Positions 37,806-63,596 of a DNA stretch of 64,000 nucleotides are shown here, piece by piece. Position 1 is the first letter of the stretch; every line of letters starts with the position of its first letter. The stretch lies in the NCBI GenBank assembly GCA_965218095.1, contig OZ244587.1:704001-768000 (forward strand). The letters are read 5' to 3'. Source of the stretch: Candidatus Poribacteria bacterium (GTDB lineage: Bacteria; Poribacteria; WGA-4E; PCPOR2b). The translations under genes were made by a program, and so were the position numbers. The notes beneath the pieces are model-generated. The model had not been told where the DNA came from, searched no databases, and was given only the letters and a program-made list of their open reading frames with translations.

Positions 37806-38072
37806 TCAGTCCACGCTCCAGAGGGCAAACATCGCAGCATCTTTGATCAGAATCTGTTTTCCCAGAACAACCAGATGCGCCCAGGTCGGACTATCAGCGA
37901 CCGAACACTGCGCGATCGGCTCAAATTTTCGCGCTTCTCTTAACGATGATCAACCCGGCATCAGTCGTCAGAAGGAACAACGCTTCTCCGGCACTGAGGA
38001 TCGCATCGCGGTTCTGTCCTCGCCACTGCGGCCATTCCCCGCTGCGCGGGATTTCGCTACCCTCAACCTCAT
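37806..38072 (-). pseudogene. Internally deleted PQQ-like beta-propeller gene
   Basis: Manual translation: EWPQWRGQNRD fused directly to AILSAGEALFLLTTDAGL; after a frameshift, SVADSPTWAHLVVLGKQILIKD...WSVD*. Confidence 0.65.
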
Positions 38073-39334
38073 TACAAATTCATTTCCTCCGGAAGCGGAC
38101 ACATTTGACTCAAGGGCCCAAAGATTCCACTGACATCTTTCCTATAAATATTGCCGCTGAGTATGTCAACGATTCCCTGCTGGCACTCCGGGAACCGTTT
38201 CAAGAATCTGGCAAAACTGAAGTCCCTCGTATAAAAGGCATATACCAGTTTACGAATGGCTTCCATTCCCGGCACAAATTCAGGTCCGAAACACCCCAAT
38301 TGCTCGCCTGAAAAATCTCCCTTTGCAAAAGCTTCATTGATGGCATCCGCTGCCATCTCGCCGGATTTGAGTGCGAGAAACAGTCCGGAGGAATAGACGG
38401 GATCTAAAAATCCAAAAGCATCCCCGACGAGCACCCAACCATCTCCGGCAATTTGACTGGCTCGATAGGAGAAATCTTTGGTGACTTTAACCGGGAAGAC
38501 CTGCTTTGCATTTGCGAGTCGCGGTTTCAAGGCAGGGCACTTTTCGAGTTCATCATCAAAAATCTGCTGGTGGGAGAGTGATTTGCGGTTCTGTATTAGA
38601 TAATCGATTGAAGCGACTACACCCACGCTCACGCGATTATAGGGAAGTGGGATGTACCAGAACCACGAATCCTTATTCTCGGTGTGGAGAATTAATGTCG
38701 CGCCCTCGTCAATGCCTTCATCCCGAACCCCGCCCGCAAAGTGTGTAAAAATCGAAGCCTTTTTCAGGTTAGGCTCCGTTGTGTTTATTTTCAACTTCCG
38801 CGAAATCAGGGCGCTTTGCCCCGTCGAATCCACGATGATTTTTGCCGGGAATTCTTTTATATTTCCGTCCGAAAGCTTTGCCCGGACACCAACCGCTTTT
38901 TCACCTCCAAACAACACCTCGTGAACACTGACCCCTCGTTGCACTTCCGCCCCTTTTTCCTGAGCATTTTCGAGCAGCATCTGGTCAAACTCGCTGCGAA
39001 GCACTTGCCAGGTCACAGAACGCTCATGGGGGTCACTTTGGTAAAAATAGAACGGCGAGGACGCTCTTCCAGAACCAGAATAAAACTGGACGCTGTATTT
39101 TTTGGGGAAATGACTGGCTTTCAGTTTTTCCAGAACGCCCAGCCGCTTAAATGTCCAATAAGTCGCCGGCATCAGCGATTCGCCGATCTTAAACCGGGAG
39201 GATTTATCGCGTTCCAGAAGCAGGATCCGATGTCCCTTCTCTGCGACTAATGCGGCGGTGGTGCTGCCCCCAGGCCCACCACCGATGACGATTACGTCGT
39301 AGTTGTTATTTTGAGGAAAGTTTAGTTTTTTCAT
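38072..39334 (-). CDS. FAD-dependent oxidoreductase, flavin halogenase (CmlS/PltA-like) family
   Basis: GGGPGG, FKIGESLMP, FPKKY, RSEFDQML, WFWYIPL (WxWxIP), GDAFGFLDPVYSSG. Confidence 0.85.
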   Translation of the reverse strand: MKKLNFPQNNNYDVIVIGGGPGGSTTAALVAEKGHRILLLERDKSSRFKIGESLMPATYWTFKRLGVLEKLKASHFPKKYSVQFYSGSGRASSPFYFYQSDPHERSVTWQVLRSEFDQMLLENAQEKGAEVQRGVSVHEVLFGGEKAVGVRAKLSDGNIKEFPAKIIVDSTGQSALISRKLKINTTEPNLKKASIFTHFAGGVRDEGIDEGATLILHTENKDSWFWYIPLPYNRVSVGVVASIDYLIQNRKSLSHQQIFDDELEKCPALKPRLANAKQVFPVKVTKDFSYRASQIAGDGWVLVGDAFGFLDPVYSSGLFLALKSGEMAADAINEAFAKGDFSGEQLGCFGPEFVPGMEAIRKLVYAFYTRDFSFARFLKRFPECQQGIVDILSGNIYRKDVSGIFGPLSQMCPLPEEMNL

Positions 39335-39525
39335 CGTTCATATTCGGTTTTTGCTGTTGAATCTTGCTCAGGTTGCAGGTTTACTTCTTGCGTTTTCCAC
39401 AAGCGGTACAGTTCAATTGTCCGCCTCATGAGCCATTTCTGGTCACTTGGGACAATGATTTTGACACCTTCATCCACTAATTCTTCCAGACGCCACCATC
39501 AAAACTGATCAGCTACTCTCCTAAC

Positions 39526-40872
39526 TCACTCACTTATCACGTTTCCATTGAGACGACGATAGTCCGTCAACCGCCGTGCCTTCAACTCAAAGCGAGGCAA
39601 CGTCCCATGAACCACCGGCTTCACATCCACACGTAGTCCCAAGGCATCCCGAATCGCTCTAGTGACGGCAGCGGCAATCCTGTCAGATTCAGCGTTGCTA
39701 ACCTCCAGCCGAATCTCCATTTCATCGAGCACCTGCCGGCGATAAACGTCCACCGCAAACTCGCCTACTTCGGGGAAACGGCGGACGATGTTTTCAATGG
39801 CGCTAGGATAGACATTTACGCCGCGTATAATCAGTGCGTCGTCGATTCGTCCGATGACGCCGCCTTCCAAACGCCAAAATGTACGACCGCATTCGCACGG
39901 TTCGGTTTGCAGCTTGACCTGATCGCCGGTGCGGTAGCGGATCACTGGCATGCCAACCCGGCGGAGATTGGTGATAACCAGCTCGCCTTCTTCGGCTGGC
40001 TCACCCGTGGCAGGATTGATGACCTCGCAAATGAATTCACCCTCGTTCAGATGAACGCCCGCCTGTGCCTGACACTCAAACCCCCACGCCCCCACTTCGG
40101 TCGCGCCGGCATGATCGTAACACTTTGCCCTCCACGCGCTTTCGATCCGATGTTTCGTCCCCGGCAGGCTAGCCCCCGGCTCACCAGCGTGAATGGTGAT
40201 GCGAACGTTGGTGTTCGCAATGTCAATCCCCTCCGCTTCGGCGACCTCAGCAAGGCGTAACGCATAAGTCGGCGTACAGATCAAAGTCGAGATGTCATTG
40301 AACCGGATTGCTCTCAGTCGCTGAAGGGAGGTCATCCCGCCGCCCGGAATGGACAGTGCGCCAATGTGGCGAGCCCCTTCGTGGGCGCTCCAGAAGCCGA
40401 TAAACGGACCGAAGGAAAAGGCGAAGAAGATCCGATCGCCCGAGGTCACACTGGCCGCACGATACACCGCCCCCCAGCAGCACGCCCACCAATTCCAACT
40501 CTCCTCGGTATCCAGCCAGCGTAACGGTTCGCCGGTCGTACCAGAGGTTTGATGGATGCGGATGTACCGCTCGCAGGGAAAGGTGAGATTGGTACCATAG
40601 GGTGGGTGAGCTGTCTGATCAGTAGAAAGCTCCTCTTTGGTGGTAAAGGGCGCCTGTCGGTAATCTTCAAGTGTTCGCACATCCTCCGGATGCTTCACCC
40701 CCGCTTCGCCCAGCTTTCGCTGATAGAAGGGGTTGGTCTGCAACACCGGGGAAAGCATCATCTGCAATTTCTTTAATTGGATCTGCGTTAGTGCTTCTCG
40801 CCCCAGCGTTTCAATGCAAGGGTCAAAGTAACTTATTGTCTCCATGTGCGTAAAACTGAAATGGAGAGGCAC
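39526..40872 (-). CDS. Phenylacetate-CoA ligase (PaaK)-like aryl acid adenylating enzyme
   Basis: PFTTKEEL, HQTSGTTGEP, AGEPG, AGATE, IRYRTGD, GRIDD, RGVNVYP. Confidence 0.9.
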   Translation of the reverse strand: MPLHFSFTHMETISYFDPCIETLGREALTQIQLKKLQMMLSPVLQTNPFYQRKLGEAGVKHPEDVRTLEDYRQAPFTTKEELSTDQTAHPPYGTNLTFPCERYIRIHQTSGTTGEPLRWLDTEESWNWWACCWGAVYRAASVTSGDRIFFAFSFGPFIGFWSAHEGARHIGALSIPGGGMTSLQRLRAIRFNDISTLICTPTYALRLAEVAEAEGIDIANTNVRITIHAGEPGASLPGTKHRIESAWRAKCYDHAGATEVGAWGFECQAQAGVHLNEGEFICEVINPATGEPAEEGELVITNLRRVGMPVIRYRTGDQVKLQTEPCECGRTFWRLEGGVIGRIDDALIIRGVNVYPSAIENIVRRFPEVGEFAVDVYRRQVLDEMEIRLEVSNAESDRIAAAVTRAIRDALGLRVDVKPVVHGTLPRFELKARRLTDYRRLNGNVISE

Positions 40873-40904: not shown

Positions 40905-41393
40905 TTAGGGATTTTCATTTATTCGCTCAGACGTTGCTAGAGGGCGGGTCATCTCAAAGGTCCCCGTGTATTTTCGGCTGGTATAGAAACCGACGAATTT
41001 TTCTTCAGTCGCTCGGCCAATCCAGTCGTAGGTGCCGCCATCCTGTTTGCCGAGATCGGCGCTGCCTTTGAACAAGACAACCTCCCCGACCCGCCGACCA
41101 GGCATCTGAATCGTATACTTATAGGGACGACCACATTCGCCCTCAAATGTCGCTTCCCATTTATCGGGACTTAACGCCACCACACGACAATCCAGACGCT
41201 GCTGATAATTTTGTGGGGCGCCTGAGACTCCCCAAGTTCCAACCCAATCGCCGCTGATGCGGGGTTGTTCAGCCTGCTGGTATACTAGCTGGGTTTGGCT
41301 GATTTGCGAGGATTTATCTGAGTGGCTACATCCCACACCGAAAATTACGCCTGAAAGCAATACGGCTACTGCTGAAAGTGTGCTAAAACGCAT
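40905..41393 (-). CDS. Hypothetical lipoprotein
   Basis: GGAGG RBS, lipobox FGVGC, beta-rich domain with two Cys. Confidence 0.7.
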   Translation of the reverse strand: MRFSTLSAVAVLLSGVIFGVGCSHSDKSSQISQTQLVYQQAEQPRISGDWVGTWGVSGAPQNYQQRLDCRVVALSPDKWEATFEGECGRPYKYTIQMPGRRVGEVVLFKGSADLGKQDGGTYDWIGRATEEKFVGFYTSRKYTGTFEMTRPLATSERINENP

Positions 41394-41489
41394 TTTATCA
41401 AACCTCCTTGCGTCAAATGTGAAACGTGATGTGTGGTGCAATTGACGCTTGTCAATTGCAGATTGCAGATTACTGATTTTCTGCTTGGT

Positions 41490-42758
41490 TTAATTCTGTT
41501 CTGTCATGTCTAAACAGACCATTTCCTTCTGGTTTCGGAGATAAAGTCTGCCACCGGCGAGCGTTGGAACGGTCCAACATTTTCCTTGTAGGACCTGAAC
41601 GCTGGCTTTCTCTTTATATTCCGAAACTAACGCTTCGACCAACGCCAGTTTGCCTTGATCTCCAAGGACAATTAAATGACCATCGGCGAGAATCAAAGTA
41701 CCTTTGCCGAAGCCACGTTGTTTCCATTGTTCCTCCCCGGTGTTTGCCTTGATACACTTTAGGATAGTGTTGTCGAAACCGTACAGATAGTCACCTTGAA
41801 GCACTGACGAGTTGAAATGATTCTTCATCACGCGACTCTGCCATGCTTCCTCAACCACCATCCCATCCGGATCGGCTTTCATTTTGAGGAGTACAGCACC
41901 CTTGTCGTACGAAGCAGAGATGAAAATTTTATCCGGCGCGATGAAGATTGGCGTGGCGATATTGATACCCTCTGGCCAGTGATACTTCCAGTAAATCTGA
42001 CCGTCCTTTGGCGCAACAGAAAGGAGGGTCTTCGATGTTAGAAAAATGATCTGCCGCATGCCATTGAACGTTATGGCAATCGGCGATGAATATGCCGGCG
42101 CGTCTGTATGGGAAGTCCACATCACATGGCCGCTTTTTTTGTCAAATGCGACTATGGATTTTCCAACCTCGCCGCCGACTTCAACCAAAAGGAGATCGCC
42201 TTCAACGAGAGGTGATGAGGAGAATCCCCACGCAGGTATACTGCTACCGAATTCCTCTACGAAATCATGTTCCCACAATTTTTCCCCGTTGCGGGTGTCT
42301 AAGGCGTAGAGCTTGCCTTCTGCCCCCAGCGCAAAAACCCAATCGCCGTCAACGGTCGGCATTGAGCGTGGGCCATCGCCGCGTTGTTCGGTGAATTTGG
42401 AGCCGGACGGACATCGCCAAATTTCCTCTCCATTGGATGCATCTAGGCAAATTACAAACTCGTTGTCACCTTCCGCGGACATCGTGTAGATATGTCCTTG
42501 TGAAATGGCAATAGCCGAAAAACCATCCCCAATCGGGACTCGCCATAAGACATTGGGGCCGTCCTCTGGCCAATTTTTGAGAAAACCGGTTTCATGGGAA
42601 ATCCCATCACGATTGGGCCCGCGCCATTGGGGCCACTCCTCTCCGATATCATCACCGATTTCAGCATTTACTATTCCACTGCTGAAATGCCATGCCAAAA
42701 ACAGCGCGGCCACTGCCAAAAATTTGCTCAAACGGATCAATCGATTTCTACTTCGCAT
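41490..42758 (-). CDS. PQQ-binding-like beta-propeller protein (secreted)
   Basis: Signal peptide; EWPQWRGPNRDG, GPRSMPTV, GFSSSPLV, AYSSPI, CWTVPTLAGGRLYLRN. Confidence 0.9.
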   Translation of the reverse strand: MRSRNRLIRLSKFLAVAALFLAWHFSSGIVNAEIGDDIGEEWPQWRGPNRDGISHETGFLKNWPEDGPNVLWRVPIGDGFSAIAISQGHIYTMSAEGDNEFVICLDASNGEEIWRCPSGSKFTEQRGDGPRSMPTVDGDWVFALGAEGKLYALDTRNGEKLWEHDFVEEFGSSIPAWGFSSSPLVEGDLLLVEVGGEVGKSIVAFDKKSGHVMWTSHTDAPAYSSPIAITFNGMRQIIFLTSKTLLSVAPKDGQIYWKYHWPEGINIATPIFIAPDKIFISASYDKGAVLLKMKADPDGMVVEEAWQSRVMKNHFNSSVLQGDYLYGFDNTILKCIKANTGEEQWKQRGFGKGTLILADGHLIVLGDQGKLALVEALVSEYKEKASVQVLQGKCWTVPTLAGGRLYLRNQKEMVCLDMTEQN

Positions 42759-42892
42759 TGTTGAAACTTCCTGATGTGAAATGAAAAGCGTAAAACGTGG
42801 TGCGTGAAACATAATTTAGTACAACCAATAAGCCCATGTTTCAGTGGATTCACATTAGTCAACAAAATGGTTGCCACATCTGGTCGGCCCCT

Positions 42893-43525
42893 CTAAGACC
42901 ACATACGCGCTGATTCATCAAACGGGAACTTTTCATTAATCAGCATCATTGGCTGTCCGTCGGCGATGATACGATACATGCGACTGATAAACATCTCATC
43001 CGCCAGATGCCCGATAGCGGGTGGCAATTCCCTGGCGTGTTCCAGCCCATACCACAGCAGTTCACGCCGGGTCTCTACCCGGCTGCGGCGCAAGAGATCG
43101 CCTAGCCCCTCGTCATCAACCTCCAAACCCTGTTTAATCACCTCTGGAAGCCGGTCCGACACAATGAGGGACATCGCGTATACATAGAGAGTAGACTTGC
43201 CTTGCAGTAGCACCTGACGGGCAATCACAGCGGTTCCTTCAGGCGCTTCAAGCCAGACGTGATCGGTGGATAGGCGTTGCGTCTCCTGGTTGAGCCGGAC
43301 AATTTCTACCGGCTCCATTGTGTAAGCTTCGATGAATTGTGTCACCGTGCCATCAATGACCAGCAAAGCACGCTGAAATGGAGTAAGCGTCCTCAGATCA
43401 ATCGCATCCAGGTACGCCGGTTTAGCAAATTGAGCGACAAAAAGATCTCTCATCTGTTTGCTGGTAAGATAGCTTGGATTAAGACGGGATGAGGTTACCT
43501 CGCCTGTACAGGTATTCGAATTCAT
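42893..43525 (-). CDS. Chorismate pyruvate-lyase (UbiC/DUF98)-like protein
   Basis: QRALLVIDGTVTQFIE, RQVLLQG, YAMSLI, GLGDLL, ETRREL, SRMYRI, MLINEKFP. Confidence 0.8.
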   Translation of the reverse strand: MNSNTCTGEVTSSRLNPSYLTSKQMRDLFVAQFAKPAYLDAIDLRTLTPFQRALLVIDGTVTQFIEAYTMEPVEIVRLNQETQRLSTDHVWLEAPEGTAVIARQVLLQGKSTLYVYAMSLIVSDRLPEVIKQGLEVDDEGLGDLLRRSRVETRRELLWYGLEHARELPPAIGHLADEMFISRMYRIIADGQPMMLINEKFPFDESARMWS

Positions 43526-43531: not shown

Positions 43532-44560
43532 CTAATCCCCTGCTTTGATTTCCCCCCACAAAGCCGGGAGCTTTCCTTTGGCTTCGACCCTGAAATCTCC
43601 GGGTCCGAGGTCATATTCTTCCACAGTCAAAAGTGCAGGGCCTAAACCTGCCGCTGCCCCACCGATGACATAGATCTTCTCATTCACGACGCTCGTCGAT
43701 AAAAACACTCTTTCGGTCGGCATGTCTGCTTTCGGCGTCCATTTGTCTGTCGGTGGCTGGTATTCTTCTACGGTTGAAAGACCGGGGCCCTGCACAACCT
43801 CCGTTCCCCCAACGGCATAGATCCTTCCATTGACGACGCTGGTGGATAAAGCCGTTCTCTTGGTTGGCATATCGGACTTCTTCGTCCATGTATCCGTTGC
43901 TGGATCATATTCTTCTACCGTCGGAAGCACAGGCCCCTGCAAGGCGAAGACTCCCCCGATAAGATAGATCTTTCCGTTGACGACACTGCTAGACATGCCT
44001 GCCCTCGCCGCAACCATGTCGGCTTTTTTCGTCCACTTGTCCGCCGCGGGATGGTATTCTTCTACGGTTCGAAGCACAGGGCCAAAATTGGTTGCCGTTC
44101 CGCCAAAGGCATAAATCTTTCCGTTCACCGCACTGGTAGAAAAGAACACTCTTGCGGTTGGCATATCGGCTTTCTGGGTCCATCTGTCCGCCGCGGGATG
44201 GTATTCTTCTACAGTCGAAAGCGCCGGGCGATCGTTACTCCAGCCACCAATGACATAAATCTTTCCGTCTACCACACTGATGGATACGCCCGCCCTTGCG
44301 GTTGGCATATCGGCTTTCTGGGTCCATTTGTCCTGAGCCGGATCGTACGCTTCCACGGTCGCGAGAACACCGGCGCCCCCAACGCCGCCAATAGCATAAA
44401 TCCTTCCGTTTACCGAGGCGGTGGCGAAAAACATCTTTGCGGCCGGCATGTCGGCTTTCAGCGTCCATTTCTCCTCTGCTGCAAGACTCATTGAAGAAAA
44501 ACCCAACAACTCACTGAGCCACCATCCGAATCCGAACATCCAAACAAAATATCGTTTCAT
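43532..44560 (-). CDS. Secreted Kelch-repeat protein (six blades) with a GKLxxxWGxIK tail
   Basis: Six repeats of VNGKIYxxGG...TVEEYxPxxDxWTxKADMPT; ends VEAKGKLPALWGEIK. The ORF-track extension to 44779 reads through a relic. Confidence 0.9.
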   Translation of the reverse strand: MKRYFVWMFGFGWWLSELLGFSSMSLAAEEKWTLKADMPAAKMFFATASVNGRIYAIGGVGGAGVLATVEAYDPAQDKWTQKADMPTARAGVSISVVDGKIYVIGGWSNDRPALSTVEEYHPAADRWTQKADMPTARVFFSTSAVNGKIYAFGGTATNFGPVLRTVEEYHPAADKWTKKADMVAARAGMSSSVVNGKIYLIGGVFALQGPVLPTVEEYDPATDTWTKKSDMPTKRTALSTSVVNGRIYAVGGTEVVQGPGLSTVEEYQPPTDKWTPKADMPTERVFLSTSVVNEKIYVIGGAAAGLGPALLTVEEYDLGPGDFRVEAKGKLPALWGEIKAGD

Positions 44561-44636
44561 GATAAGACTTTTCCCAATAATGATAAGGACGACATCTGTC
44601 CATGAAGAAAAGGAGATGTGAAACGTGAAGCCAGGA

Positions 44637-44835
44637 TTGATTTGCCGAATACCATCAACTGTGATGGCAATGGGCGATGAATATGCGGGCACGTCTGTGT
44701 GGGAAGTCCACACTACACTGCCGCTTTGTTTGTCAAAGGCAATAATAGATTTTCCTGCCTTGTTGCCAACTTCAACCAAAAGCAGATCGTCCTCAACAAT
44801 CCGATCAAAGGGAAAAACCGATTTTTACTTTTCAT
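44637..44835 (-). pseudogene. Relic of another PQQ-like propeller paralog
   Basis: VEDDLLLVEVGNKAGKSIIAFDKQSGSVVWTSHTDVPAYSSPIAITVDGIRQI is nearly identical to internal segments of 41490-42758 and 44896-46170. Confidence 0.7.
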
Positions 44836-44895: not shown

Positions 44896-46170
44896 CTACC
44901 GACTCGTCATATCTAAACAAACTATCGCCTTTTCGTTTCGGAGATAGAGTTTACCACCAGCAAGCGTCGGCGCCGTCCAGCAGAGTCCACTCAGCACTTC
45001 GGCGCTCGCGCTTTCTTTATACCCTGCAGGTGTTGCTTCAGCTAACGCCAGTTTGCCACGATCACTGAGGATAATCAAGTGACCATCAGCAAGAATTAGA
45101 GTGCCTTTCCCAAGACCGCGTGTCTTCCATTTTTCCTCGCCGGTGCTTGCCTCAATACACTTCAAGATGGAATTGTCGAAGCCATACAGATGATTTCCGT
45201 AAAGAACTGAAGAGGCAAAATGATTCTTCAGTTTGCGACTTTTCCAGATTTCTTCAACCCTTATTGTGCCTTGGTTTTCCCTGATTTGCACCCTTGCAGT
45301 GCGGTCATCATCGGGCGAGACGAAAACTCTCATCTGTAGCATGGCGGCACCCTTGTCATACCCGGAGGATATGAAGACTTTATCCGGCGGAATAAAGACC
45401 GGCGTGGCGGCGTTGATATCGTAACCGGTCTTCCACGGGTATTTCCAGTAAATTGTTCCATCGGTTGGAGAGACAGAAACCAGCTTAGTTCCTGTAAAAA
45501 AGATGATTTGTCGAATCCCCTTGACCGTAATGGCGATAGGCGATGAATATCCAAGTTTGTCTTTATGAGAACTCCATATCACATCGCCGTTTTTTTTATC
45601 AAAGGCAACGATAGATTTTTCACCCTTCCCACCGACTTCAACCAAAAGCAACTCCCCATCAACCAGCGGCGATGTGCTGAACCCCCATCTGGGCATTTCG
45701 CTTCCGAACTCTTGCTGCAAATTATGTGACCAGACCTTTTTCCCATTCTCGGCATTCAGGGCATACAGTTTGCCATGGGCACTGATTGTAAAGAGGAGAG
45801 CCCCGTCAACCGTCGGGGTTGCACGAGGCCCATTGCCACCCTGACCCTCGTAGTAATTGTTATCCGATCGGAAACGCCAAATTTCCCCCCCATCTGTGGC
45901 ATTGAGGCAAACGACAAACTCGTCGTTCCCTTTGGAGAACATGGTGTAGACCCGTCCCTGAGAAACAGAGATACCAGAAAATCCCCCTCCAAGTGGGATC
46001 TTCCAAAGCACTTTGGGACCGCTCGGGGACCACTCCTTGAGGAGTCCCATTTCATCGGAGACCCCATCGCGATTGGGGCCCCGCCATTGGGGCCATTCCG
46101 TAGCTCTGGTCGTTAAAATACTGCTGCAAAGCAACACGGACACGATTAAAAAAGTTGTGATTTTTTTCAT
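44896..46170 (-). CDS. PQQ-binding-like beta-propeller protein (secreted), paralog of 41490-42758
   Basis: EWPQWRGPNRDG, GPRATPTV, GFSTSPLV, GYSSPI, CWTAPTLAGGKLYLRN. Confidence 0.9.
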   Translation of the reverse strand: MKKITTFLIVSVLLCSSILTTRATEWPQWRGPNRDGVSDEMGLLKEWSPSGPKVLWKIPLGGGFSGISVSQGRVYTMFSKGNDEFVVCLNATDGGEIWRFRSDNNYYEGQGGNGPRATPTVDGALLFTISAHGKLYALNAENGKKVWSHNLQQEFGSEMPRWGFSTSPLVDGELLLVEVGGKGEKSIVAFDKKNGDVIWSSHKDKLGYSSPIAITVKGIRQIIFFTGTKLVSVSPTDGTIYWKYPWKTGYDINAATPVFIPPDKVFISSGYDKGAAMLQMRVFVSPDDDRTARVQIRENQGTIRVEEIWKSRKLKNHFASSVLYGNHLYGFDNSILKCIEASTGEEKWKTRGLGKGTLILADGHLIILSDRGKLALAEATPAGYKESASAEVLSGLCWTAPTLAGGKLYLRNEKAIVCLDMTSR

Positions 46171-56307: not shown

Positions 56308-57396
56308 CTAATACACCCCCACTACAACAGACTCCTGAAGCTCAGAAAGCAGCCGGAGGTTTTTAACGCCATCCCAGGGATACCCCTCAATCGGCTCAGC
56401 CCGTTCTGCTTCATCCCTTTCGAGAAAACGCGGCATGAAGAATTCCTTCGTCAGTGTCGTCAACATCACCCGCCCTGTTTCGCCGTAGCCGACAGGTTCT
56501 TCGGGGTTGTCTGGATTGACCAATTCAATGACAGCGCGGGGTTGAGGTGGGTAGTAGATAATGGCATAGTTGTCCGCAGGGTCAAACGGTTTGCAGACCG
56601 CCAAGCCCATCAGGGTGTTCCCATACGTCGGCAAAAAATCGACCCCCGGTACCAACTCCTCGCGGGCGAAACGGTGAAATTGGGCGTCCATCTCCGTTCC
56701 ACCGCAAAAGATGCCTTTGATACCAACCTTTTGTAGGGAGATCTTTTCGCACAACTCCTCAAGCAGCTTCGGTGTTGTGAACAAACACTGGATGTTATCG
56801 TGGGCGCGTAGGATATTCAATGCTTGATCAATGACGTGGTTTTTATAAAGATCCGACTCCTGATGCTTTTCGTACTGAATCAATTTGTTCACCCATCGCG
56901 GATCGAGATCAACGAGGAAGCAGATGCCGCCGCGATGTTGAGCTAGGTATTCAACGGCGAGGCGGAGCCGTCGCGGCCCGGTGGGGCCCAGCATGAGCCA
57001 ATCGCTTCCACGTGGAAATCCCTCATCGGAAAGGGTTTCGCTGAACATTTCATAATCGATCTGAAAGTCGCGGATGCTGATGCGGCTCTTCGGGACGCCG
57101 GTAGAGCCGCCTGTTTCAAATACATACACAGGTTGGTCTGCGTAATCTTTGGGCACCCACCTCCGCACCGGTCCACCGCGCAACCATTCATCCTGAAAAT
57201 GCTCAAGGAGCTTTAAGTCGTCGTAGCCCCCGATCGCTTTGCGAGGGTCAAAATCGAGTTTCTCTACAAATTCTGACCAAAATGGAGGACCAGTTTCTGG
57301 ATTGAAATGCCACTGGACAATTTCACGAACATGGGCATCAAGTTGGTCACGCGCTTCTCCCACCTTTTTAGATAGTGATTGATTTAAGGTATCCAT
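56308..57396 (-). CDS. Atypical adenylating enzyme, GriC/EhpF-like (aryl carboxylate reductase component)
   Basis: WHFNPETGPPFW, FETGGSTGVPK, LGPTGP, DLDPRWVNKL, FTTPKLL, YGNTL, VGYGETGRV, ERD. Confidence 0.75.
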   Translation of the reverse strand: MDTLNQSLSKKVGEARDQLDAHVREIVQWHFNPETGPPFWSEFVEKLDFDPRKAIGGYDDLKLLEHFQDEWLRGGPVRRWVPKDYADQPVYVFETGGSTGVPKSRISIRDFQIDYEMFSETLSDEGFPRGSDWLMLGPTGPRRLRLAVEYLAQHRGGICFLVDLDPRWVNKLIQYEKHQESDLYKNHVIDQALNILRAHDNIQCLFTTPKLLEELCEKISLQKVGIKGIFCGGTEMDAQFHRFAREELVPGVDFLPTYGNTLMGLAVCKPFDPADNYAIIYYPPQPRAVIELVNPDNPEEPVGYGETGRVMLTTLTKEFFMPRFLERDEAERAEPIEGYPWDGVKNLRLLSELQESVVVGVY

Positions 57397-57420: not shown

Positions 57421-57786
57421 TTAGGCCAGTCGCCACGATTCAACATTCTTCAGGATTTCAGCAGACCGATGGAGAGTGAACGCCTCCGTTTCCAGAATGC
57501 ACCGATTGATTTTCAGGTAATTTTCGTTCTCAAGCAACTTCCAAAGGGGTTTTGAGTATTCGATGAAAGCGTGCTTGACACGAGTCTCCCCACGTTTCAA
57601 GTTGCCCTCCGGATCGAGTACCTGACCGACAGAATCCTTCAATTCCTCCACATAATCTGGAGACAACATATTTTTTACAACAGCGAAACCGTGTGCATCA
57701 TGACAAGCCTTAATCGCCGAAAGTTCGTCCGGTGCAAACTCATATTGATATGGTAAATTGACAGGCTGAAAGTTATTGTTGGACAT
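57421..57786 (-). pseudogene. Truncated phytanoyl-CoA dioxygenase (PhyH)-like N-terminus
   Basis: HDAHGFAVVKNMLSPDYVEELK is a typical PhyH start; the ORF stops before any HxD motif. Confidence 0.55.
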
Positions 57787-57879: not shown

Positions 57880-59331
57880 TTACTGCATAGCAATCGCAAA
57901 GAGCGTATTCCGACTTGCAATATACAGTACACCGTTTTTTGCTACCGGGGTGGTATAAACCGCACTCCCCATATTGGTCTCATAGATTAGTTCTTTCTTT
58001 TTGCCTGCTTTTAAGATGGCAACATCTCCGTCCTCGTCTCCGATGTACACCTTGCCATCCGCCACGAATGTTGACCCCCAAATCGCAGCAAATGTGTCAT
58101 ACGTCCAATGATGCTCACCCGTGTTGGCATCAAGGCAGTAGACGAAACCGCTCAAGTCTGCCACGTAGAGCAGATCATCGGCAATTGCGACAGTGGACAT
58201 CGCGCGATGGAAATCTTCGTCGCCTCGATGCCAGACGGCCCCGGTCTCGGTGATGTCTCCTTCACCCGTTGCGTCAATTGCCCAGAGATGGCCGATTCCC
58301 TCCCCATGTTCCGGGTCCTGTCCCACGCTGATGTAAACCTTATCCTCCCAAATGACAGGTGTCGAAATAATGTTATTGCGTGTACCTCGGCCGCCCAGCT
58401 CCCAAACGGAATCTTTGGGATTACAGTCAAATTTCCAGATTAGTGTTCCTGTCTCAGGTTCGAGGGAATAGATCCAGCCGTCGCCGCCGGGAAAGATGAC
58501 TTGGGGTTTGCCGTTGATTACCCCGTAGGCGGGGTTAGACCATTGACCGTGTAAGATATTTTCGGCAGGAGAGGCATCTTCCCAAACCAGTTCGCCGGTC
58601 GTTTTATTGAGTGCGATAAAGCTCGGCGCAAAAGGGGAAGGAATGTGAACGTGCCCTTCGTCGACACCGTTGCTCGTTTCCACAAAGAGCAAATCACCAA
58701 CACCGACTGGGGAACAGGTGGCGAGATTGTGGGGAAAAACCTCCAATTCTTCGATCATATCATACTTCCAGATGATGTCTCCATCAATTTCGCTGGTGTC
58801 GGTCTCCTCCTTGAAGGGTCCATCATTTTCACCGTCCATGAAGCCTTCGGTATCTACGCAAACAATTTCAGCGCGGTTGGAAATATAATAGAGCCGATCG
58901 TCCTCGATAAAAGGCGTTGAACAGATACCCTGTTGAGGCCAATCGTTGACGCGTCCGGCGGGGAGTTTAGTATGTGTGGATTGCCAGAGAAATTCCCCGT
59001 CCGACTCGCGGAACGCCATAATAACGCCGCGGTCACCAGTAAGTTTCGGATTTCGCATCCCTTGGTTGTTCGTGCCGACAAACACCTTACCGCCGATGAG
59101 AACGGGACCCGCATAGGTCTGCGACCCCAAGGTTGCTGTCCATTTGATGTTTAATCCGGTTTCTGTGTCCCATTTTTCCGGCAGATTTTTTTCATCGGAG
59201 ACCAAGTTGCGCGATGGTGTGAAACCCCACATCGCTGTCTCAGCGGCGACGGGTGTTACCGATACTATCAAAACCGTTAAGAGAATAATGTAAAAGATAG
59301 CACCTGTTTCTAGAATCTGTTGATGTCTCAT
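57880..59331 (-). CDS. PQQ-binding-like beta-propeller protein with acidic loops (secreted)
   Basis: Signal peptide; NIKWTATLGSQTY, GICSTP, FPHNLATCSP, NGVDEGH, HGQWSNP, GQDPEHGEG. Confidence 0.88.
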   Translation of the reverse strand: MRHQQILETGAIFYIILLTVLIVSVTPVAAETAMWGFTPSRNLVSDEKNLPEKWDTETGLNIKWTATLGSQTYAGPVLIGGKVFVGTNNQGMRNPKLTGDRGVIMAFRESDGEFLWQSTHTKLPAGRVNDWPQQGICSTPFIEDDRLYYISNRAEIVCVDTEGFMDGENDGPFKEETDTSEIDGDIIWKYDMIEELEVFPHNLATCSPVGVGDLLFVETSNGVDEGHVHIPSPFAPSFIALNKTTGELVWEDASPAENILHGQWSNPAYGVINGKPQVIFPGGDGWIYSLEPETGTLIWKFDCNPKDSVWELGGRGTRNNIISTPVIWEDKVYISVGQDPEHGEGIGHLWAIDATGEGDITETGAVWHRGDEDFHRAMSTVAIADDLLYVADLSGFVYCLDANTGEHHWTYDTFAAIWGSTFVADGKVYIGDEDGDVAILKAGKKKELIYETNMGSAVYTTPVAKNGVLYIASRNTLFAIAMQ

Positions 59332-59370: not shown

Positions 59371-60126
59371 TTAAAAATCGTCTAACTGTGGTCCTGTTAT
59401 TACACTCAATATTCCGTTGTGAAGTTTGTATTTAGCATCGAAGTCTGCACAGTCGTGATTAGAGTATTTTTCCAACACTTTTACGCACCAAGCAAACAAG
59501 GTTCTGAGCGAAGCGCATGCGTCGGGGCGAGACAGAATGTACTCAATGTTAATTTTATTCAAAATTGCTCCGCCATGTTTAATTTCATCAAAACAGGAAT
59601 ACAACCCTTTGAGTTTATTTTTAGGATGGCGAATTTCCTCAACATCACCTTCGTTGTCTGAAAGGGAGGTTTTCAGGATAGTGTTAATCGCTTGTGCGTC
59701 AGCGAAGGAGTACGCCTCAAGCATATTCACCAGAAAATGCACAGATGCGCGATGCTTCAAGGTGTTTAGTACCGTATCAAGTGCCAATCGATAGCGATTA
59801 AAGACCTGTTGCGCTTGATCTCTGCGGTCATATTCCAGATCGTCAATTAGGAGGACAAAGTGGCAAACGTCAGTCATTAGATACTTTCTTGCCGCCAATC
59901 CAATTTTCGCATCTTTGCTAGGAATGTCCTTGCCGTTGCGAAGCGCTTTAAGTCTTTTCGTTGAGGTAATTGCTCCAAGCTGACCGACGCGCCGAATCAC
60001 TTCAAAGGTACAAACCCCGGTTTCCATTAGCGACTTAAATAACTTTGGAAGATGTTGTTGTTCAGTTTCCCCGGTAACGATTAAGCCAAAGTGGAAAGTG
60101 GAAATAGGTGCATTGTGGATATTCAT
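59371..60126 (-). CDS. DUF4276/RloB-like protein (TOPRIM-like), putative nuclease partner
   Basis: LIVTGETE, LLIDDLE, LEAYSFAD, VEEIRHPK, CASLRTL; directly downstream of an ABC-type ATPase. Confidence 0.65.
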   Translation of the reverse strand: MNIHNAPISTFHFGLIVTGETEQQHLPKLFKSLMETGVCTFEVIRRVGQLGAITSTKRLKALRNGKDIPSKDAKIGLAARKYLMTDVCHFVLLIDDLEYDRRDQAQQVFNRYRLALDTVLNTLKHRASVHFLVNMLEAYSFADAQAINTILKTSLSDNEGDVEEIRHPKNKLKGLYSCFDEIKHGGAILNKINIEYILSRPDACASLRTLFAWCVKVLEKYSNHDCADFDAKYKLHNGILSVITGPQLDDF

Positions 60127-60147
60127 CAGGCTGTGTGTCCTCTGCAG

Positions 60148-61377
60148 TCATTCCCCCTTCTCCTTGGCGTAGGGTTTACTTTGGGGGGCAATGGCTTCAG
60201 CCATGTAAAGCGAGCCGGTATCATAGCTTTCCAGCAAATCTTGAATATCGTCCATCTCACTGACCCGCGTTAGAACCGTCTGCCCAGCCTTATCCAGTCC
60301 TGTTGCCAAAATATCTGCTGGCTCAAACTGACCAATCAAAACTGGGGAATGTGTTGCGATGAAAACCTGCTTGTTCCATTCCTTTGTGGCTTGCTTGACT
60401 GCCTCCGCAAAAACAGAGATAGCATAAGGGTGAAGCGAGGTTTCCGGCTCATCGAACAAGATTAGCACGTCATGCTGATTTCCGTGAGCAAACAGCGAAG
60501 TTAGCAGAATGAGCATTTGCAATTGACCCTCCGACTCGCTTAGTGCTGGAATTGGGTCTTGCAGGTTTTTTTGGACAAAGCTGGCGTAGATTGCGTTTGG
60601 ACCGGCGGGATCAAACACCAGATCTTTGAAATTAGGGAAACTTTTTCGCATAAAACTGATAATAGTTTCATAGCGCGAATCGATTGCACTTTTATCGCGA
60701 ATGTTGCGCAGAACCGACCATAGATTCCCGCAATCCTCGCGCAACGTGATATCCATACCTGACTCCGAGCCGCGTTGCTTAAGCCCATATAGGTCAGTAT
60801 AATGAGAGTGGAAAAAATGAACAGAGTTGAGCAAACTTCGTAAATCGAAAGCATCTGGAGGAATAAGTTTCCTTCCTTGCATATACTGAATCAAAGAAGG
60901 TTCATATTGAATCAAAGCAAGTTTTTCTGGAAAGGTCAGGCGAGTTTGTGCCGAAGAGTTTTCTTCATAATGATAAAAGTCAGCCTCATTGCTGCCTACT
61001 CTTCGATTTATTAGGCGGACTTTTTTTTCTTTGGAATATAGAACTTCCCCGGCATACGGATCAATTTGACCAAGTGAAAATCCTAATCGGAGTGCGTACT
61101 CGGCAAGTACTGTTTCCAACGTGATTGATATACCTTCCCATTCATCAACGCGTTGCCCAACACCCTGCCGCAACATACCAAAACCGTTATTCCGGCTTCT
61201 ACCAGCCTCGGCAACATCTCGAAAAACACAATCCCTGACCAACCGAATTGCTTCCAACAACGTCGATTTCCCTGAACCATTCGGTCCAAACAGGACATTA
61301 ATTGGGCGCAGTTCTACTGAGACATCTGCCAGTGATCGGAAGTTTTGGATATGTAAACGGGTTAGTTGATTGCCCAT
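60148..61377 (-). CDS. AAA_21/ABC-type ATPase (AbiEii/RloA/AriA-like)
   Basis: IQNFRSL, GPNGSGKST, SEGQLQ, LILFDEPETSLHP, IATHSP. Confidence 0.88.
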   Translation of the reverse strand: MGNQLTRLHIQNFRSLADVSVELRPINVLFGPNGSGKSTLLEAIRLVRDCVFRDVAEAGRSRNNGFGMLRQGVGQRVDEWEGISITLETVLAEYALRLGFSLGQIDPYAGEVLYSKEKKVRLINRRVGSNEADFYHYEENSSAQTRLTFPEKLALIQYEPSLIQYMQGRKLIPPDAFDLRSLLNSVHFFHSHYTDLYGLKQRGSESGMDITLREDCGNLWSVLRNIRDKSAIDSRYETIISFMRKSFPNFKDLVFDPAGPNAIYASFVQKNLQDPIPALSESEGQLQMLILLTSLFAHGNQHDVLILFDEPETSLHPYAISVFAEAVKQATKEWNKQVFIATHSPVLIGQFEPADILATGLDKAGQTVLTRVSEMDDIQDLLESYDTGSLYMAEAIAPQSKPYAKEKGE

Positions 61378-61385
61378 GATTTTCC

Positions 61386-63596
61386 TCAATTCCCCCAAAC
61401 CTTCAGATTATCATAATAGATCTCAGCCGGCGAATAGCCGTAGATGCCCGGACTCCCTTCCCGATTCGGCAGCGGATCTTCGACTATAATCGTCCATTCA
61501 TCCGGTTCCGGCTCACCTCTGACCCAAACCTTTCCCTTGACGTGCGCCGTGTCATCAACAATATCCACCGTCATTTTCATGGTGTACCAGACATTCGGCT
61601 CCCACTTGAAATCAACCCACTTTGCCATTCGGAGATCTGATCGCCACGAAAGCACCTGAAGCCGTTGGTAATTGCCTTGCATCTCAAGTGTGTAGCGGTG
61701 AGCGATGAGTCCCATGTCCGGAAGGTTTCGCTTCGGCTTCGTTCCCAGCAAATCGACTTGGAGGGTATAATTTTGTATGTTCGGGGGACCGATGTAAACG
61801 TTGGAGCGGTGCAATCCGCGGCGGGCGGGCGGTTTGACGAGAATTTTGTTCCCATCCATTTGACGGACGACAAATCGGTTTGTTGCACGGACCCAATGCG
61901 GCGGACTCTTCCCCTCCTCTATCGACTCAAAATCTTCGTGCCACGGCAATTGTGGAATAACTCGGACTCGTGCGGAGTTGCTTAAATCGCCAATCTTCGC
62001 CGATACTGTTCCTGCTTGACCGGGGCGACTCGGTTCAAGAATCAACTTTCCGTTGTCATCAATAGTCCCTGACAATCCATTGAGTGACCACTCAGCAGCC
62101 TTTTCGCCAATCAGTGCACCTTTATTGTCAAAAGCACGAACGCTAAATTGGAGGCTGTCCCCCGATTGGACTAGAACTTCGGTGGGTACAATCTGTATTG
62201 ATGCAGGAGCAGAAGTAGACATCGCCACAGTGCTGGGTGCTGATACAGGAACAGGCTGGGTTGAGGTGGAAGACCCCTGAACCCCTAAGCAGTAAAGCCC
62301 TTCCTCAGTGGTAAAGTAAACTCGACCGTTAGCGATGGCAGGTGAACCGTAGATCTCCGCATAGCGACCGGATTCCCTTTCAATCTGTACTGTGTTAAGC
62401 GTTTTACACTCGTTCTCACCCGGCTGCAGGATGTGGAAGTGACCATTGACTTCCGTGACATAGATTTTTCCGTCAGCGACAACAGGGGACCCTTTACCCA
62501 CTGTGCCGAGGCTATGTGTCCAATGAGCCTCCCCGGTTTTGCCGTTGAGACAGTGTAAATTCGCCGAACTGTCCACAACATAAAGCCGGCCATCGTCCAG
62601 CGCTGGAGAACTATAACCCGCCTCTATGCCGTCAACTCGCCAGACCTCATGCGATTTTGTAATATCGCCCGTGCCAGTTCCATCAATGCAGACGACGCGC
62701 CCCATCACTGTCGTGTCCGTGTTCTCCTGATTGTGACTTGCGTAAACCCGTGTGCCATCTACGACCACTGACGCATTGAGAGCCCCTTGACTGACCCGGA
62801 AGCCCCAGACTTTTTCACCGGTTCGCACATCCATCGCGTACACATAACCATCTGCATTACCGTCGATTAACAGCCGGCGCCCGTGGATCTCGGCGACGAC
62901 AGCCACTGGATATGTTGTATTCTTCGGGGGGCCACCGGGTGTTGTGGGCCAAACCACATCTCCCGTGCGTTTGTCGAACGCAAAATAACGATGTCGCATC
63001 GCGGCGTGACTGCCCCAACTGGTGTTAAGAAAACTGAGGATCACAAGGTTTCCATCGACAACAGGTGTAACAACTCGCCCACCATAGCCCGTGAACCGAC
63101 CAAATTCTTCTGTCAAAGAACGCGACCAAACAACCTGCCCGTCCTTATCGAAACAGGCAAACACGCCGCTAATGGTGTGGGCATAGATATAACCCGTTTC
63201 CCTATCTCCCGCCAGACTTGTCCAACCCAGTCGATTAAAAGGGATTGTGCTGTGAAAGACATTGAATCGGTGTTCCCAGAGCAGACTCCCCGTTTCGGCA
63301 TCAAAGCAGGCAACCCGTTCCTGCTCAGTGATGTCCATCCCAACCCGCCCGATGACATAGACTCGATTGTTCAAAACGATTGGTGTGGAACGACCGATAA
63401 AGTCTACCTTCCAAATTAAGTTCTCGCCATCCACAGACCAGTTCGAGATTAAACCGGTTTGTGAAGACGCGCCATTCTGATTCGGTCCTCGCCAACTTGG
63501 CCAATCCCGAGCCAGCGCGTTGTCGAAGCCAACACTCAGAATGAATAGCACATAAAGAAAAGTACAGGTTGTTTTAAAAGTAATCTGAGACCGCAT
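61386..63596 (-). CDS. PQQ-binding-like beta-propeller with Ig-like and C-terminal beta-sandwich domains (secreted)
   Basis: Signal peptide, DWPSWRGP, propeller repeats, Ser/Thr/Pro linker, C-terminal WYTMK...KVWVRGEPEPDEW...GSPGIYG...YYDNLKV. Confidence 0.88.
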   Translation of the reverse strand: MRSQITFKTTCTFLYVLFILSVGFDNALARDWPSWRGPNQNGASSQTGLISNWSVDGENLIWKVDFIGRSTPIVLNNRVYVIGRVGMDITEQERVACFDAETGSLLWEHRFNVFHSTIPFNRLGWTSLAGDRETGYIYAHTISGVFACFDKDGQVVWSRSLTEEFGRFTGYGGRVVTPVVDGNLVILSFLNTSWGSHAAMRHRYFAFDKRTGDVVWPTTPGGPPKNTTYPVAVVAEIHGRRLLIDGNADGYVYAMDVRTGEKVWGFRVSQGALNASVVVDGTRVYASHNQENTDTTVMGRVVCIDGTGTGDITKSHEVWRVDGIEAGYSSPALDDGRLYVVDSSANLHCLNGKTGEAHWTHSLGTVGKGSPVVADGKIYVTEVNGHFHILQPGENECKTLNTVQIERESGRYAEIYGSPAIANGRVYFTTEEGLYCLGVQGSSTSTQPVPVSAPSTVAMSTSAPASIQIVPTEVLVQSGDSLQFSVRAFDNKGALIGEKAAEWSLNGLSGTIDDNGKLILEPSRPGQAGTVSAKIGDLSNSARVRVIPQLPWHEDFESIEEGKSPPHWVRATNRFVVRQMDGNKILVKPPARRGLHRSNVYIGPPNIQNYTLQVDLLGTKPKRNLPDMGLIAHRYTLEMQGNYQRLQVLSWRSDLRMAKWVDFKWEPNVWYTMKMTVDIVDDTAHVKGKVWVRGEPEPDEWTIIVEDPLPNREGSPGIYGYSPAEIYYDNLKVWGN

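Follow-up and report, generated by a model that had tools for sequence, protein, structure and literature searches.

GriC/GriD (grixazone) and EhpF/EhpG (griseoluteic acid) are two-protein aryl-carboxylate reductases. In another type of system, a chorismate lyase and a flavin-dependent halogenase lead to bromophenolics, and the available part of one preprint gives BaaA/BaaB of a planctomycete and Bmp6/Bmp5 as examples (bioRxiv 10.1101/723874). Orphan clusters that combine a halogenase with an adenylase in sponge microbiomes have been grouped as the 'Halo_AMP' pseudoclass, with no product assigned (bioRxiv 10.64898/2026.08.03.742642). According to the accessible portion of that preprint, their source phyla include Acidobacteriota, Latescibacterota and Poribacteria, and the clusters carry radical S-adenosylmethionine (SAM) genes, TonB receptors and glycosyltransferases, with domains like those binding pyrroloquinoline quinone (PQQ) occurring 'at high frequency'; 20 families are recognised, of which the text follows the P450-containing CC A and proposes brominated peptidic products. 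Here, we describe a gene cluster of related content in a 64,000-nt stretch of Candidatus Poribacteria bacterium (GCA_965218095.1, contig OZ244587.1, 704,001-768,000, forward strand), hereafter the window. The source is a bacterium of sponge-symbiont type, and its best hits likewise fall in Candidatus Poribacteria. The cluster combines a halogenase, two adenylating enzymes and a radical SAM enzyme with exported PQQ-like propellers, and the window is best read as an expanded copy of an orphan cluster that is conserved across phyla.

A ten-gene core conserved across phyla

Open reading frames (ORFs) in the window were taken as the longest open frames, without a gene finder, and 42 of them were scanned for families. 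Between 38072 and 63596, every ORF of at least 100 aa with a family hit lies on the minus strand, in agreement with the 25-kb single-strand run reported in a preliminary description of this DNA, and the run extends down to 31553. Within it, ten genes form a core that recurs in other genomes. In order, they are:

61386-63596, minus strand: PQQ5, a signal peptide followed by a PQQ_2 propeller, an Ig-like domain and a concanavalin/lectin-like beta-sandwich (Pfam PQQ_2, 2.2e-32)
57880-59331, minus strand: PQQ4, an exported PQQ_2 propeller (Pfam PQQ_2)
56308-57396, minus strand: EhpF/GriC-like truncated adenylating enzyme (PDB EhpF 3l2k/3hgu, 1.2e-43)
52663-54096, minus strand: divergent reductase partner of the aldehyde dehydrogenase (ALDH) superfamily, GriD/EhpG-like (Pfam Aldedh, 2.2e-12)
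50492-51601, minus strand: iron-containing alcohol dehydrogenase (Fe-ADH; Pfam Fe-ADH, 2.3e-44)
49369-50616, probable true start near 50505, minus strand: PQQ3, an exported, highly regular propeller (Pfam Beta-prop_ACSF4)
48016-49362, minus strand: HemN-like radical SAM enzyme (Pfam Radical_SAM and HemN_C)
44896-46170, minus strand: PQQ2, an exported PQQ_2 propeller (Pfam PQQ_2)
39526-40872, minus strand: PaaK-like aryl/arylacetate adenylating ligase (PDB 4r1l, 5.6e-66)
38072-39334, minus strand: flavin-dependent halogenase (PDB halogenases and motifs)

Related loci were gathered by a single scan of genome contigs with the radical SAM protein, which gave 31 loci, each with flanks of up to 10 kb (numbered with the prefix L below). 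Most are from Poribacteria; one is from Latescibacterota, two from Acidobacteriota, one from Bacteroidota, one from Verrucomicrobiales and one is unclassified. Copies from KSB1 also turned up, as protein hits. The ten-gene order is kept in Poribacteria and Latescibacterota, and the Acidobacteriota share it with a receptor replacing the PaaK-like gene. For example, the Latescibacterota locus (L021) holds all ten genes within 13.8 kb, with frames that overlap or are separated by a few bases, while an acidobacterial locus (L023) keeps the core order with a TonB-dependent receptor at the PaaK position. The preliminary description had proposed that a failure of the core genes to co-occur in other genomes would speak against its interpretation; the full block in L021 and the block with one substitution in L023 show that they do co-occur. 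At the Verrucomicrobiales locus, the radical SAM protein is 47% identical and none of its partner genes lies within the fetched flanks.

The window proteins were mapped onto the 31 loci by tblastn (E of at most 1e-10, coverage of at least 0.5); the counts for the outer genes are lowered in part by the 10-kb flank limit. The radical SAM gene occurs in all 31 loci, PQQ3 in 28/31, Fe-ADH in 27/31 and the ALDH-like gene in 24/31, and 20/31 have PQQ2 or its duplicate PQQ1 downstream of the radical SAM gene. The EhpF-like gene was found in 16/31 loci (70-93% identity) and PQQ4 in 9/31 (66-94%), followed by the PaaK-like gene (7/31), the halogenase (6/31) and PQQ5 (4/31, 47-77%, a count limited by flank length).

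Identity across phyla reaches 70-76% for the EhpF-like protein, 66-72% for PQQ4 and 62-67% for the radical SAM enzyme, much the same level as for the divergent Poribacteria locus L017. Because this overall range of 62-76% between L021 and Poribacteria is similar to identities within Poribacteria, and because PQQ3 and PQQ4 of Latescibacterota nest inside Poribacteria sequences in a quick tree, there is a hint that the whole cluster may have moved between phyla by transfer. The conservation of order across phyla suggests that the arrangement is more than chance. As judged by gene content and order, this co-conservation shows a functional link between the enzymes and the propellers, without telling its nature.

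Four groups of exported propellers

As first described, the window encodes five secreted propellers of the PQQ_2 type (PQQ1 to PQQ5), whose N-termini resemble signal peptides when judged by eye. In a quick maximum-likelihood tree of 28 propeller sequences, four clades (PQQ2, PQQ3, PQQ4 and PQQ5) were recovered with 99-100% support, each containing Poribacteria, Latescibacterota and Acidobacteriota members. PQQ4 forms a clade of its own (99%), and the PQQ2 clade (100%) has PQQ1 nested within it; PQQ1 and PQQ2 are 57-58% identical. The four types are thus separate orthologous groups kept across three phyla.

None of the five propellers passes the PQQ alcohol-dehydrogenase model TIGR03075 (35-91 bits, cut-off 480) or the BamB model TIGR03300 (55-148 bits, cut-off 285), and the CxxCH motif is absent from all five. 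PQQ3, which is encoded directly upstream of the radical SAM gene, passes Pfam Beta-prop_ACSF4 (223 bits, cut-off 133), which models the propeller of the ACSF4 enzyme of animals. Among natural PDB chains, it is closest to an archaeal PQQ-repeat protein, kinase propellers, tetrathionate hydrolase and BamB, and it matches PDB quinoproteins at no more than 56 bits with partial coverage. PQQ4, the most conserved of the propellers, belongs to a family with 28152 representatives at E of at most 0.001. Among 20 relatives sampled, nine are fused to Peptidase_M56 (BlaR1-type) and two to Pkinase. Because its relatives carry BlaR1-type or kinase domains, the evidence points to a probable role of PQQ4 as a binding or sensing module. 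The C-terminal 282 aa of PQQ5 were modelled (pLDDT 85.7) as an Ig-like domain followed by a lectin-like beta-sandwich, with Foldseek matches to accessory beta-sandwich domains of glycosidases, Big_2-CBM56 and legume lectins.

Further propeller genes, relics and a small lipoprotein accompany these four groups in the window:

46312-47952, minus strand: YWTD (LDL-receptor class B) propeller lipoprotein (Pfam Ldl_recept_b, 5.3e-90)
44639-44815, minus strand: propeller relic of 59 aa at the 5' end of the Kelch ORF (identity to PQQ1/PQQ2)
43532-44779, probable true start about 44560, minus strand: Kelch-repeat propeller (Pfam Kelch_1, 6.2e-72)
41490-42812, minus strand: PQQ1, a PQQ_2-type propeller and Poribacteria-specific duplicate of PQQ2, nested in the PQQ2 clade
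40905-41441, minus strand: lipoprotein of 178 aa with a predicted calycin (lipocalin)-like barrel (structure model, Atlas cluster name)
about 37999-38046, minus strand: second, very short putative propeller relic (16-aa stretch with an EWPQWRG motif)

Two propeller relics had been proposed. The one at 44639-44815 shares 76% identity with PQQ1 (residues 202-255) and 63% with PQQ2 (residues 164-222). The other, at about 37999-38046, is weak, with 69-85% identity over 13-16 aa to the N-termini of PQQ1/PQQ2, and it lies just outside the 38072-63596 interval to which it had been assigned. The Kelch propeller has an internal Met and its own signal peptide and was found in 4/31 loci; WD40 genes occur in L012 and L031.

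The 178-aa ORF and the YWTD protein both have lipoprotein-type N-termini, and the former agrees with the lipoprotein that had been noticed earlier. It is predicted to fold into an eight-stranded barrel (core pLDDT of about 75-90). The Atlas cluster closest to it bears the name 'Lipocalin family protein' (score 0.94), and Foldseek gave weak lipocalin and fatty-acid-binding protein matches (E 6e-4 to 7e-3). In two other loci, a lipocalin-like domain is fused to the C-terminus of a PQQ1 propeller (L027:7984-9639, L031:12849-14522).

Six-bladed-type propeller genes were also seen beside the cluster in other loci (L027:13346-14521, L029:19824-21014, L021:19-918, L017:3791-4495, L028:5529-6260). They are of the glucose/sorbosone dehydrogenase (GSDH), SMP-30/gluconolactonase and weakly Vgb-lyase-like kinds.

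Enzymes of the core

The EhpF-like protein aligns over residues 20-362 of 362 with residues 21-366 of the 366 residues of EhpF, which places it among the truncated ANL enzymes, and its phosphate loop TGGSTGxPK is invariant in five of five sequences. In its ALDH-like partner, Cys288 aligns with the catalytic Cys of ALDHs and is invariant in six of six sequences, and a His stands at the position of the general-base Glu that activates the hydrolytic water in oxidising ALDHs. This protein fits an enzyme that would keep an acyl-thioester for reduction, because it combines the conserved Cys with a His in place of that Glu. The two genes abut in L021 (6268/6269); in the window, a gene for a thiamine diphosphate (ThDP) enzyme stands between them. 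A complex of the two proteins was predicted with an ipSAE score of 0.76, compared with 0.00 for the best of three controls; this mark is reached by 116/157 solved complexes and by 2/215 mismatched pairs. Agreement between runs extends to at least 69% of contacts, partner pLDDT values are 91 or higher, and the contact residues overlap invariant columns of both alignments. The models support the view that the two proteins bind each other, as would be expected of a GriC/GriD-type pair made of a ligase and a Cys-bearing ALDH-superfamily protein.

The next core gene after the ALDH-like one encodes the Fe-ADH, whose best NCBIfam match, ErcA, scores 277 bits (cut-off 550). Together, the EhpF homology, the Cys without Glu, the predicted binding and the position of the Fe-ADH gene make the sequence from acid to aldehyde to alcohol that had been suggested earlier a plausible core activity. 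The PaaK-like protein matches phenylacetate-CoA ligase 4r1l over its full length. It is a family-level relative and does not pass the NCBIfam PaaK models (242-265 bits, cut-offs 646-700).

Flavin-dependent halogenases are recognised by a GxGxxG FAD motif, WxWxIP and a catalytic lysine. The window protein matches solved halogenases (8zop, 5.4e-62 and 213 bits; CndH, 6.5e-56; also PltA, Mpy16 and Bmp2), and GGGPxG, the Lys of FPxKYSVQF and WFWxIPLP are invariant in seven of seven orthologues. Its lysine aligns with K76 of CndH and its WFWxIP with WFWYIP of CndH. A literature search on PDB 8ZOP found nothing relevant. No flavin reductase or carrier-protein family was detected among the 42 ORFs scanned, and the intergenic gaps contain no long ORF; the expected partner would be a flavin reductase or, for this 'variant B' type, a carrier protein, and such partners are often encoded elsewhere. 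In L018 (13861-14823) and at the matching place in L019, a PhyH-family dioxygenase occupies the halogenase position between the PaaK-like and transporter genes, which may be a non-orthologous replacement of the ring-modifying step.

The radical SAM enzyme has CxxxCxxC and GGGTP motifs that are invariant in eight of eight sequences. It scores 180-186 bits with the NCBIfam models hemN, STM4012 and HutW, all below cut-off; in particular, it does not pass the coproporphyrinogen III oxidase model TIGR00538 (186 bits, cut-off 325), and it reaches 180 bits against ChuW/HutW (cut-off 400). A fourth Cys after CxxxCxxC is important for HemN. When CHKLCYFCGC of HemN is aligned with CRKRCKFCYF of the window protein, the fourth Cys corresponds to Phe. 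PDB matches include HemN (5.6e-33) and the class C methyltransferase NocN (1.6e-26), the latter confined to the N-terminal half. A tetrapyrrole substrate was considered as a possibility, given the HemN-like character of this enzyme and the resemblance of the halogenase to pyrrole halogenases.

Additions to the core

The window copy contains several genes in addition to the core:

59371-61398, minus strand: inserted pair of a DUF4276 gene and an AAA_21 ATPase gene (Pfam DUF4276, AAA_21)
57421-57786, minus strand: 121-aa remnant of a truncated PhyH-family iron- and 2-oxoglutarate-dependent dioxygenase (intact L002 orthologue)
54205-55956, minus strand: ThDP enzyme nearest to benzoylformate decarboxylase (three Pfam TPP domains)
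51659-52405, minus strand: creatininase-family amidohydrolase (Pfam Creatininase, 5.6e-63)
42893-43525, minus strand: UbiC/DUF98 (Rv2949c-like) chorismate-lyase family protein (Pfam PF01947)

Every gene named in the preliminary description was found, from the UbiC-like lyase, the PaaK-like ligase and the GriC/EhpF-like and GriD/EhpG-like pair to the Fe-ADH, the HemN-like enzyme and the halogenase. Its list was nevertheless incomplete: the ThDP enzyme, the creatininase, the Kelch propeller, the PhyH remnant and the DUF4276/AAA_21 pair had all been missed. Its statement that polyketide synthase, nonribosomal peptide synthetase, pqq and phz genes are lacking agrees with the scan, in which none of these families appeared among the 42 ORFs, although a tiny pqqA could still escape.

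The UbiC-like protein belongs to PF01947 (72.6 bits, cut-off 22) and matches PDB 2nwi (9.4e-18); against the NCBIfam cyanobacterial chorismate lyase equivalog it scores 31.6 bits (cut-off 175). Relatives elsewhere are 55-77% identical, and those of 55-56% possibly lie on the contigs bearing L003 and L012, beyond the 10-kb flanks. Genes for the UbiC-like protein, the YWTD lipoprotein, the DUF4276 protein and the AAA_21 ATPase were each absent from all 31 fetched loci when sought down to E 1e-3, which makes the YWTD lipoprotein specific to the window. Conversion of chorismate to 4-hydroxybenzoate had been proposed as the entry step of the pathway. Because the UbiC-like gene was found in 0/31 loci, this step is probably a local add-on at most and does not hold as an entry step of the core.

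The ThDP enzyme occurs in 16/31 loci, all from Poribacteria, and is probably an addition in close Poribacteria loci. The first 49 PDB matches listed for it are all benzoylformate decarboxylases (about 102-131 bits), and it scores 198 bits with the NCBIfam benzoylformate decarboxylase model, below the cut-off of 493. Additions of the UbiC and benzoylformate decarboxylase types, taken with the reductase pair, would suggest an aryl aldehyde as the central intermediate. The creatininase is confined to Poribacteria loci (19/31, 85-93% identity) and scores 122 bits with NCBIfam MftE (cut-off 172).

The 121-aa ORF has orthologues in 6/31 loci. Alone, it gave a non-significant Pfam PhyH match (E 0.23), and BLASTP against the PhyH protein of L018 found no match. 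It is identified as an N-terminal PhyH remnant only through its intact 291-aa orthologue (L002:1166-2041), which matches Pfam PhyH (1.5e-14). The AAA_21 ATPase matches PADLOC HEC-01A (3.7e-50) and AriA (1.6e-30), and the DUF4276 protein has no PADLOC match. Because the pair is absent from all related loci, it looks like a defence-type insertion between PQQ4 and PQQ5 that is likely to lie outside the system.

Importers and downstream neighbours

The core is followed by a secondary-active importer, and in the window a transporter of the tripartite ATP-independent periplasmic (TRAP) class stands directly downstream of the halogenase:

34764-37840, minus strand: TAXI-type TRAP transporter, solute-binding subunit and fused permease (NCBIfam)

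It passes the NCBIfam models TRAP_TAXI (262 bits, cut-off 84) and TRAP_fused (538 bits, cut-off 321). In L017-L019, a TAXI gene likewise follows the halogenase or the PhyH gene that replaces it. In L023, the halogenase is followed by DUF3311, SSF symporter and GT4 glycosyltransferase genes with 4-base overlaps each, and the same set follows the halogenase in L021; TAXI-TRAP thus stands at the place of the SSF set in the window and L017-L019. The acidobacterial TonB-type receptor passes a siderophore-receptor model (288 bits, cut-off 223.5). An importer is always coupled to the cluster (window, L017-L019, L021 and L023), its family varying, and no exporter is coupled to it.

The sole exporter candidate in the window is a MatE-family efflux protein (25849-27213, minus strand), non-adjacent and about 11 kb from the halogenase. 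Just past the TRAP transporter lies a 2-methylcitrate dehydratase gene, PrpD (33075-34517; 867 bits, cut-off 575), for which no link to the cluster was seen, followed by a sulfatase gene (31553-33037).

Insertions and wider surroundings

In the Poribacteria loci sampled, unrelated genes are interspersed among the cluster genes, which are themselves intact. They include a BsoBI-type restriction system, an Eco57I-type methylase, a C5 methylase, a reverse transcriptase, a ParE-like toxin, DUF488 with a RecQ-like helicase, RusA with a nuclease, and a PD-(D/E)XK transposase (sites: L012:965-3376, L008:11371-15817, L005:17902-19080, L012:12063-13472, L017:3362-3694, L028:11511-15397, L027:12195-13273, L031:11400-12290).

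Elsewhere in the window, transposase genes or fragments (DDE_Tnp_1_3, DDE_Tnp_1, IS630-type DDE_3) and a DUF1670 gene lie at 4115-4914 and 16012-18718. A 1668-aa protein with Reg_prop repeats and Ig-like domains (10694-15700) is flanked on both sides by transposase regions. A permissive Rfam scan of 31000-64000 found no riboswitches or other RNAs. Promoter-like sites (26, against 20.0 ± 4.6 in shuffles) and terminator-like sites (15, against 20.4 ± 4.6) were not above chance.

A possible pathway and its alternatives

A scheme can be proposed in which an aromatic acid becomes a halogenated, possibly methylated aldehyde or alcohol. The acid would be imported or made in the cell and activated by the PaaK-like ligase. 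An electron-rich ring would then be halogenated, the substrate possibly being held as a coenzyme A thioester, a form suggested because no carrier protein is encoded. The HemN-like enzyme would carry out radical chemistry, most likely C-methylation of the class C type. The EhpF-like and ALDH-like pair would act as a two-protein ATP-dependent carboxylate reductase, proceeding from acyl-adenylate to a thioester on the conserved Cys and on to the aldehyde, which the Fe-ADH would reduce to the alcohol. At the envelope, the four exported propellers would serve to bind or capture the molecule or its target, or to pass it on, assisted by accessory modules, namely the lectin-like domain of PQQ5 and the lipocalin-like lipoprotein (propeller-fused in some genomes), while the importers would bring in the precursor or recapture the product. 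In this genome, the UbiC-like lyase could supply hydroxybenzoate to the reductase and the benzoylformate-decarboxylase-like enzyme could convert an aryl-glyoxylate to an aldehyde, so that both additions would meet at a benzaldehyde intermediate. We give this scheme a probability of roughly 45%.

Several points weigh against the scheme. Each of its chemical steps is read from family membership, and every substrate-specific (equivalog) enzyme model scored below its curated cut-off. Apart from the distant MatE protein, the 42 ORFs include no recognised exporter, nor did a carrier protein or a flavin reductase appear among them, and the cluster-adjacent importers would fit uptake and catabolism as well as they fit re-capture of a secreted product. 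The low counts of the PaaK-like gene and halogenase also count against it, although they result partly from insertions that push both genes past the 10-kb flank. L001 and L005 have other genes after PQQ1, and L018/L019, in which PhyH takes the place of the halogenase, have no EhpF-like or ALDH-like gene within reach. Finally, the binding role suggested for the propellers draws on domain fusions in their relatives and on weak fold matches.

The same genes could instead serve uptake and transformation, or detoxification: exported proteins would capture or process an external, for example host-derived, aromatic compound, TonB, TRAP or SSF systems would import it, and cytoplasmic enzymes would convert it. 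The coupling of importers of three families, and of no exporter, to the cluster in three phyla is in line with such a role, as are the export of the propellers, the nearby sulfatase, and the fact that some PQQ-like propellers work as periplasmic enzymes without a cofactor (one such enzyme, tetrathionate hydrolase, is a PDB match of PQQ3). However, the lysine and WxWxIP that mark true halogenases are retained in the flavoprotein, catabolic routes do not usually spend ATP on reducing an acid to an alcohol, and neither the window nor the compact loci showed genes for ring cleavage, beta-oxidation or dehalogenases. The recruitment of a chorismate-lyase family gene into this copy also argues for endogenous supply, and we consider an uptake locus unlikely. 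A different role for the propellers would follow if the enzymes made a new small aromatic, possibly halogenated, cofactor or ligand that is loaded into four apo-propellers by analogy with PQQ, as the preliminary description had envisaged. Synthesis, including the radical SAM step, would be cytoplasmic and use periplasmic, with the lipocalin-like lipoprotein and the importers providing delivery or salvage. This would amount to a second system of the PQQ kind, in phyla that abound in 'empty' PQQ-like propellers. The strict co-conservation of four propeller groups interleaved with enzyme genes in three phyla would suit this arrangement, as would the failure of the propellers with the PQQ-dehydrogenase model and the lack of pqq genes in the window. 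Yet relatives of PQQ4 at 40-59% identity are sensor-type domains on BlaR1-like proteins and kinases, and the size of its family implies wide use, presumably often without the pathway. The core also lacks a cofactor exporter, and neither a redox partner nor a CxxCH motif in any of the five propellers was seen. A loaded cofactor therefore strikes us as quite improbable.

It is also conceivable that the enzymes modify the propellers themselves before Sec export, forming a protein-derived cofactor or halogenating side chains in the manner of the QhpD/QhpG or LodB maturases. Each enzyme module adjoins a propeller gene in fixed order, and the flavoprotein matches QhpG (127 bits) and LodB (112 bits), both below cut-off. 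True halogenases match it far better, however (213 bits for 8zop, compared with 22.7 bits for solved QhpG), and characterised enzymes of the EhpF/GriC and PaaK types act on small acids, which leaves modification of the propellers with a very slim chance. Hardly more credible is the absence of any functional link, with numerous propeller genes standing among unrelated enzymes by chance. These genomes are indeed rich in propellers, as the unrelated Kelch and YWTD genes in the window and the WD40 genes in L012/L031 illustrate, and close Poribacteria loci are heavily invaded by unrelated genes. Nevertheless, four orthologue groups at the same positions in three phyla, in overlapping or near-abutting frames, strongly disfavour coincidence. 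An analogy with CylK/BrtB, propeller enzymes that use alkyl halides, was set aside for two reasons: the aryl halides made by flavin-dependent halogenases are poor electrophiles for CylK-type chemistry, and CylK, a propeller of the NHL type, works with another class of halogenase.

In summary, synthesis of a modified aryl aldehyde or alcohol with propellers that bind it or its target remains the preferred reading. Relative to the preliminary description, the observations are confirmed in part and the interpretation is partly supported: co-occurrence of the core and the acid-to-alcohol sequence stand, but the UbiC entry step does not.

Significance and comparison with known systems

Among the exported proteins that lack an explanation in Poribacteria, Planctomycetota, Acidobacteriota and neighbouring phyla, PQQ-like propellers rank with the most numerous. 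Four of them fixed in order with defined small-molecule enzymes provide an experimental handle on propeller function. The cluster is also a candidate bacterial origin of small halogenated aromatics in sponges, and its compact 14-kb version lends itself to expression. If the propellers need the product, a new cofactor system would be defined; should their part be limited to capturing or sensing it, the cluster would be an unusual natural-product pathway with built-in extracytoplasmic binding proteins and importers.

Each of the closest known systems resembles the locus in part. As in PQQ and quinoprotein systems, cytoplasmic enzymes including a radical SAM enzyme are encoded beside exported propellers of the eight-bladed type. 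However, the window has no pqq genes, its propellers score 35-91 bits against a cut-off of 480, and its radical SAM enzyme is HemN-like rather than PqqE-like. Maturation of quinohemoprotein amine dehydrogenase (QhpD, QhpG and a propeller subunit) likewise combines a radical SAM enzyme with propellers and with a flavoprotein from the same broad family. In the window, however, the flavoprotein is a halogenase by its motifs and matches solved QhpG weakly, and the small crosslinked subunit, the protease and the ABC exporter were not seen.

The locus shares with BaaA/BaaB and Bmp6/Bmp5 a UbiC-like lyase and a halogenase in one locus of marine host-associated bacteria. It differs in that 3.6 kb and three genes separate the lyase gene from the halogenase gene, none of the 31 related loci carries the lyase, and the core has many more enzymes as well as propellers. 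Its likeness to GriC/GriD and EhpF/EhpG lies in a truncated adenylating enzyme homologous to EhpF along its whole length, an ALDH-superfamily partner with the Cys, adjacency of the two genes in L021 and a predicted complex. In contrast to those systems, the window has no 3,4-AHBA (3-amino-4-hydroxybenzoic acid) or phenazine pathway and its pair is split by the ThDP gene.

A literature search on sponge clusters combining halogenase, PaaK-like and HemN-like genes, or on PQQ propellers of Poribacteria, returned nothing beyond the 2026 preprint and unrelated propeller papers. In the accessible portion of that preprint, the four propeller groups, the ten-gene core, the EhpF/ALDH-like/Fe-ADH triad and the coupled importers are not described. 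As far as this portion defines the Halo_AMP pseudoclass, the window falls within it: its halogenase adjoins a PaaK-like gene, and a second adenylating enzyme is encoded in the same run.

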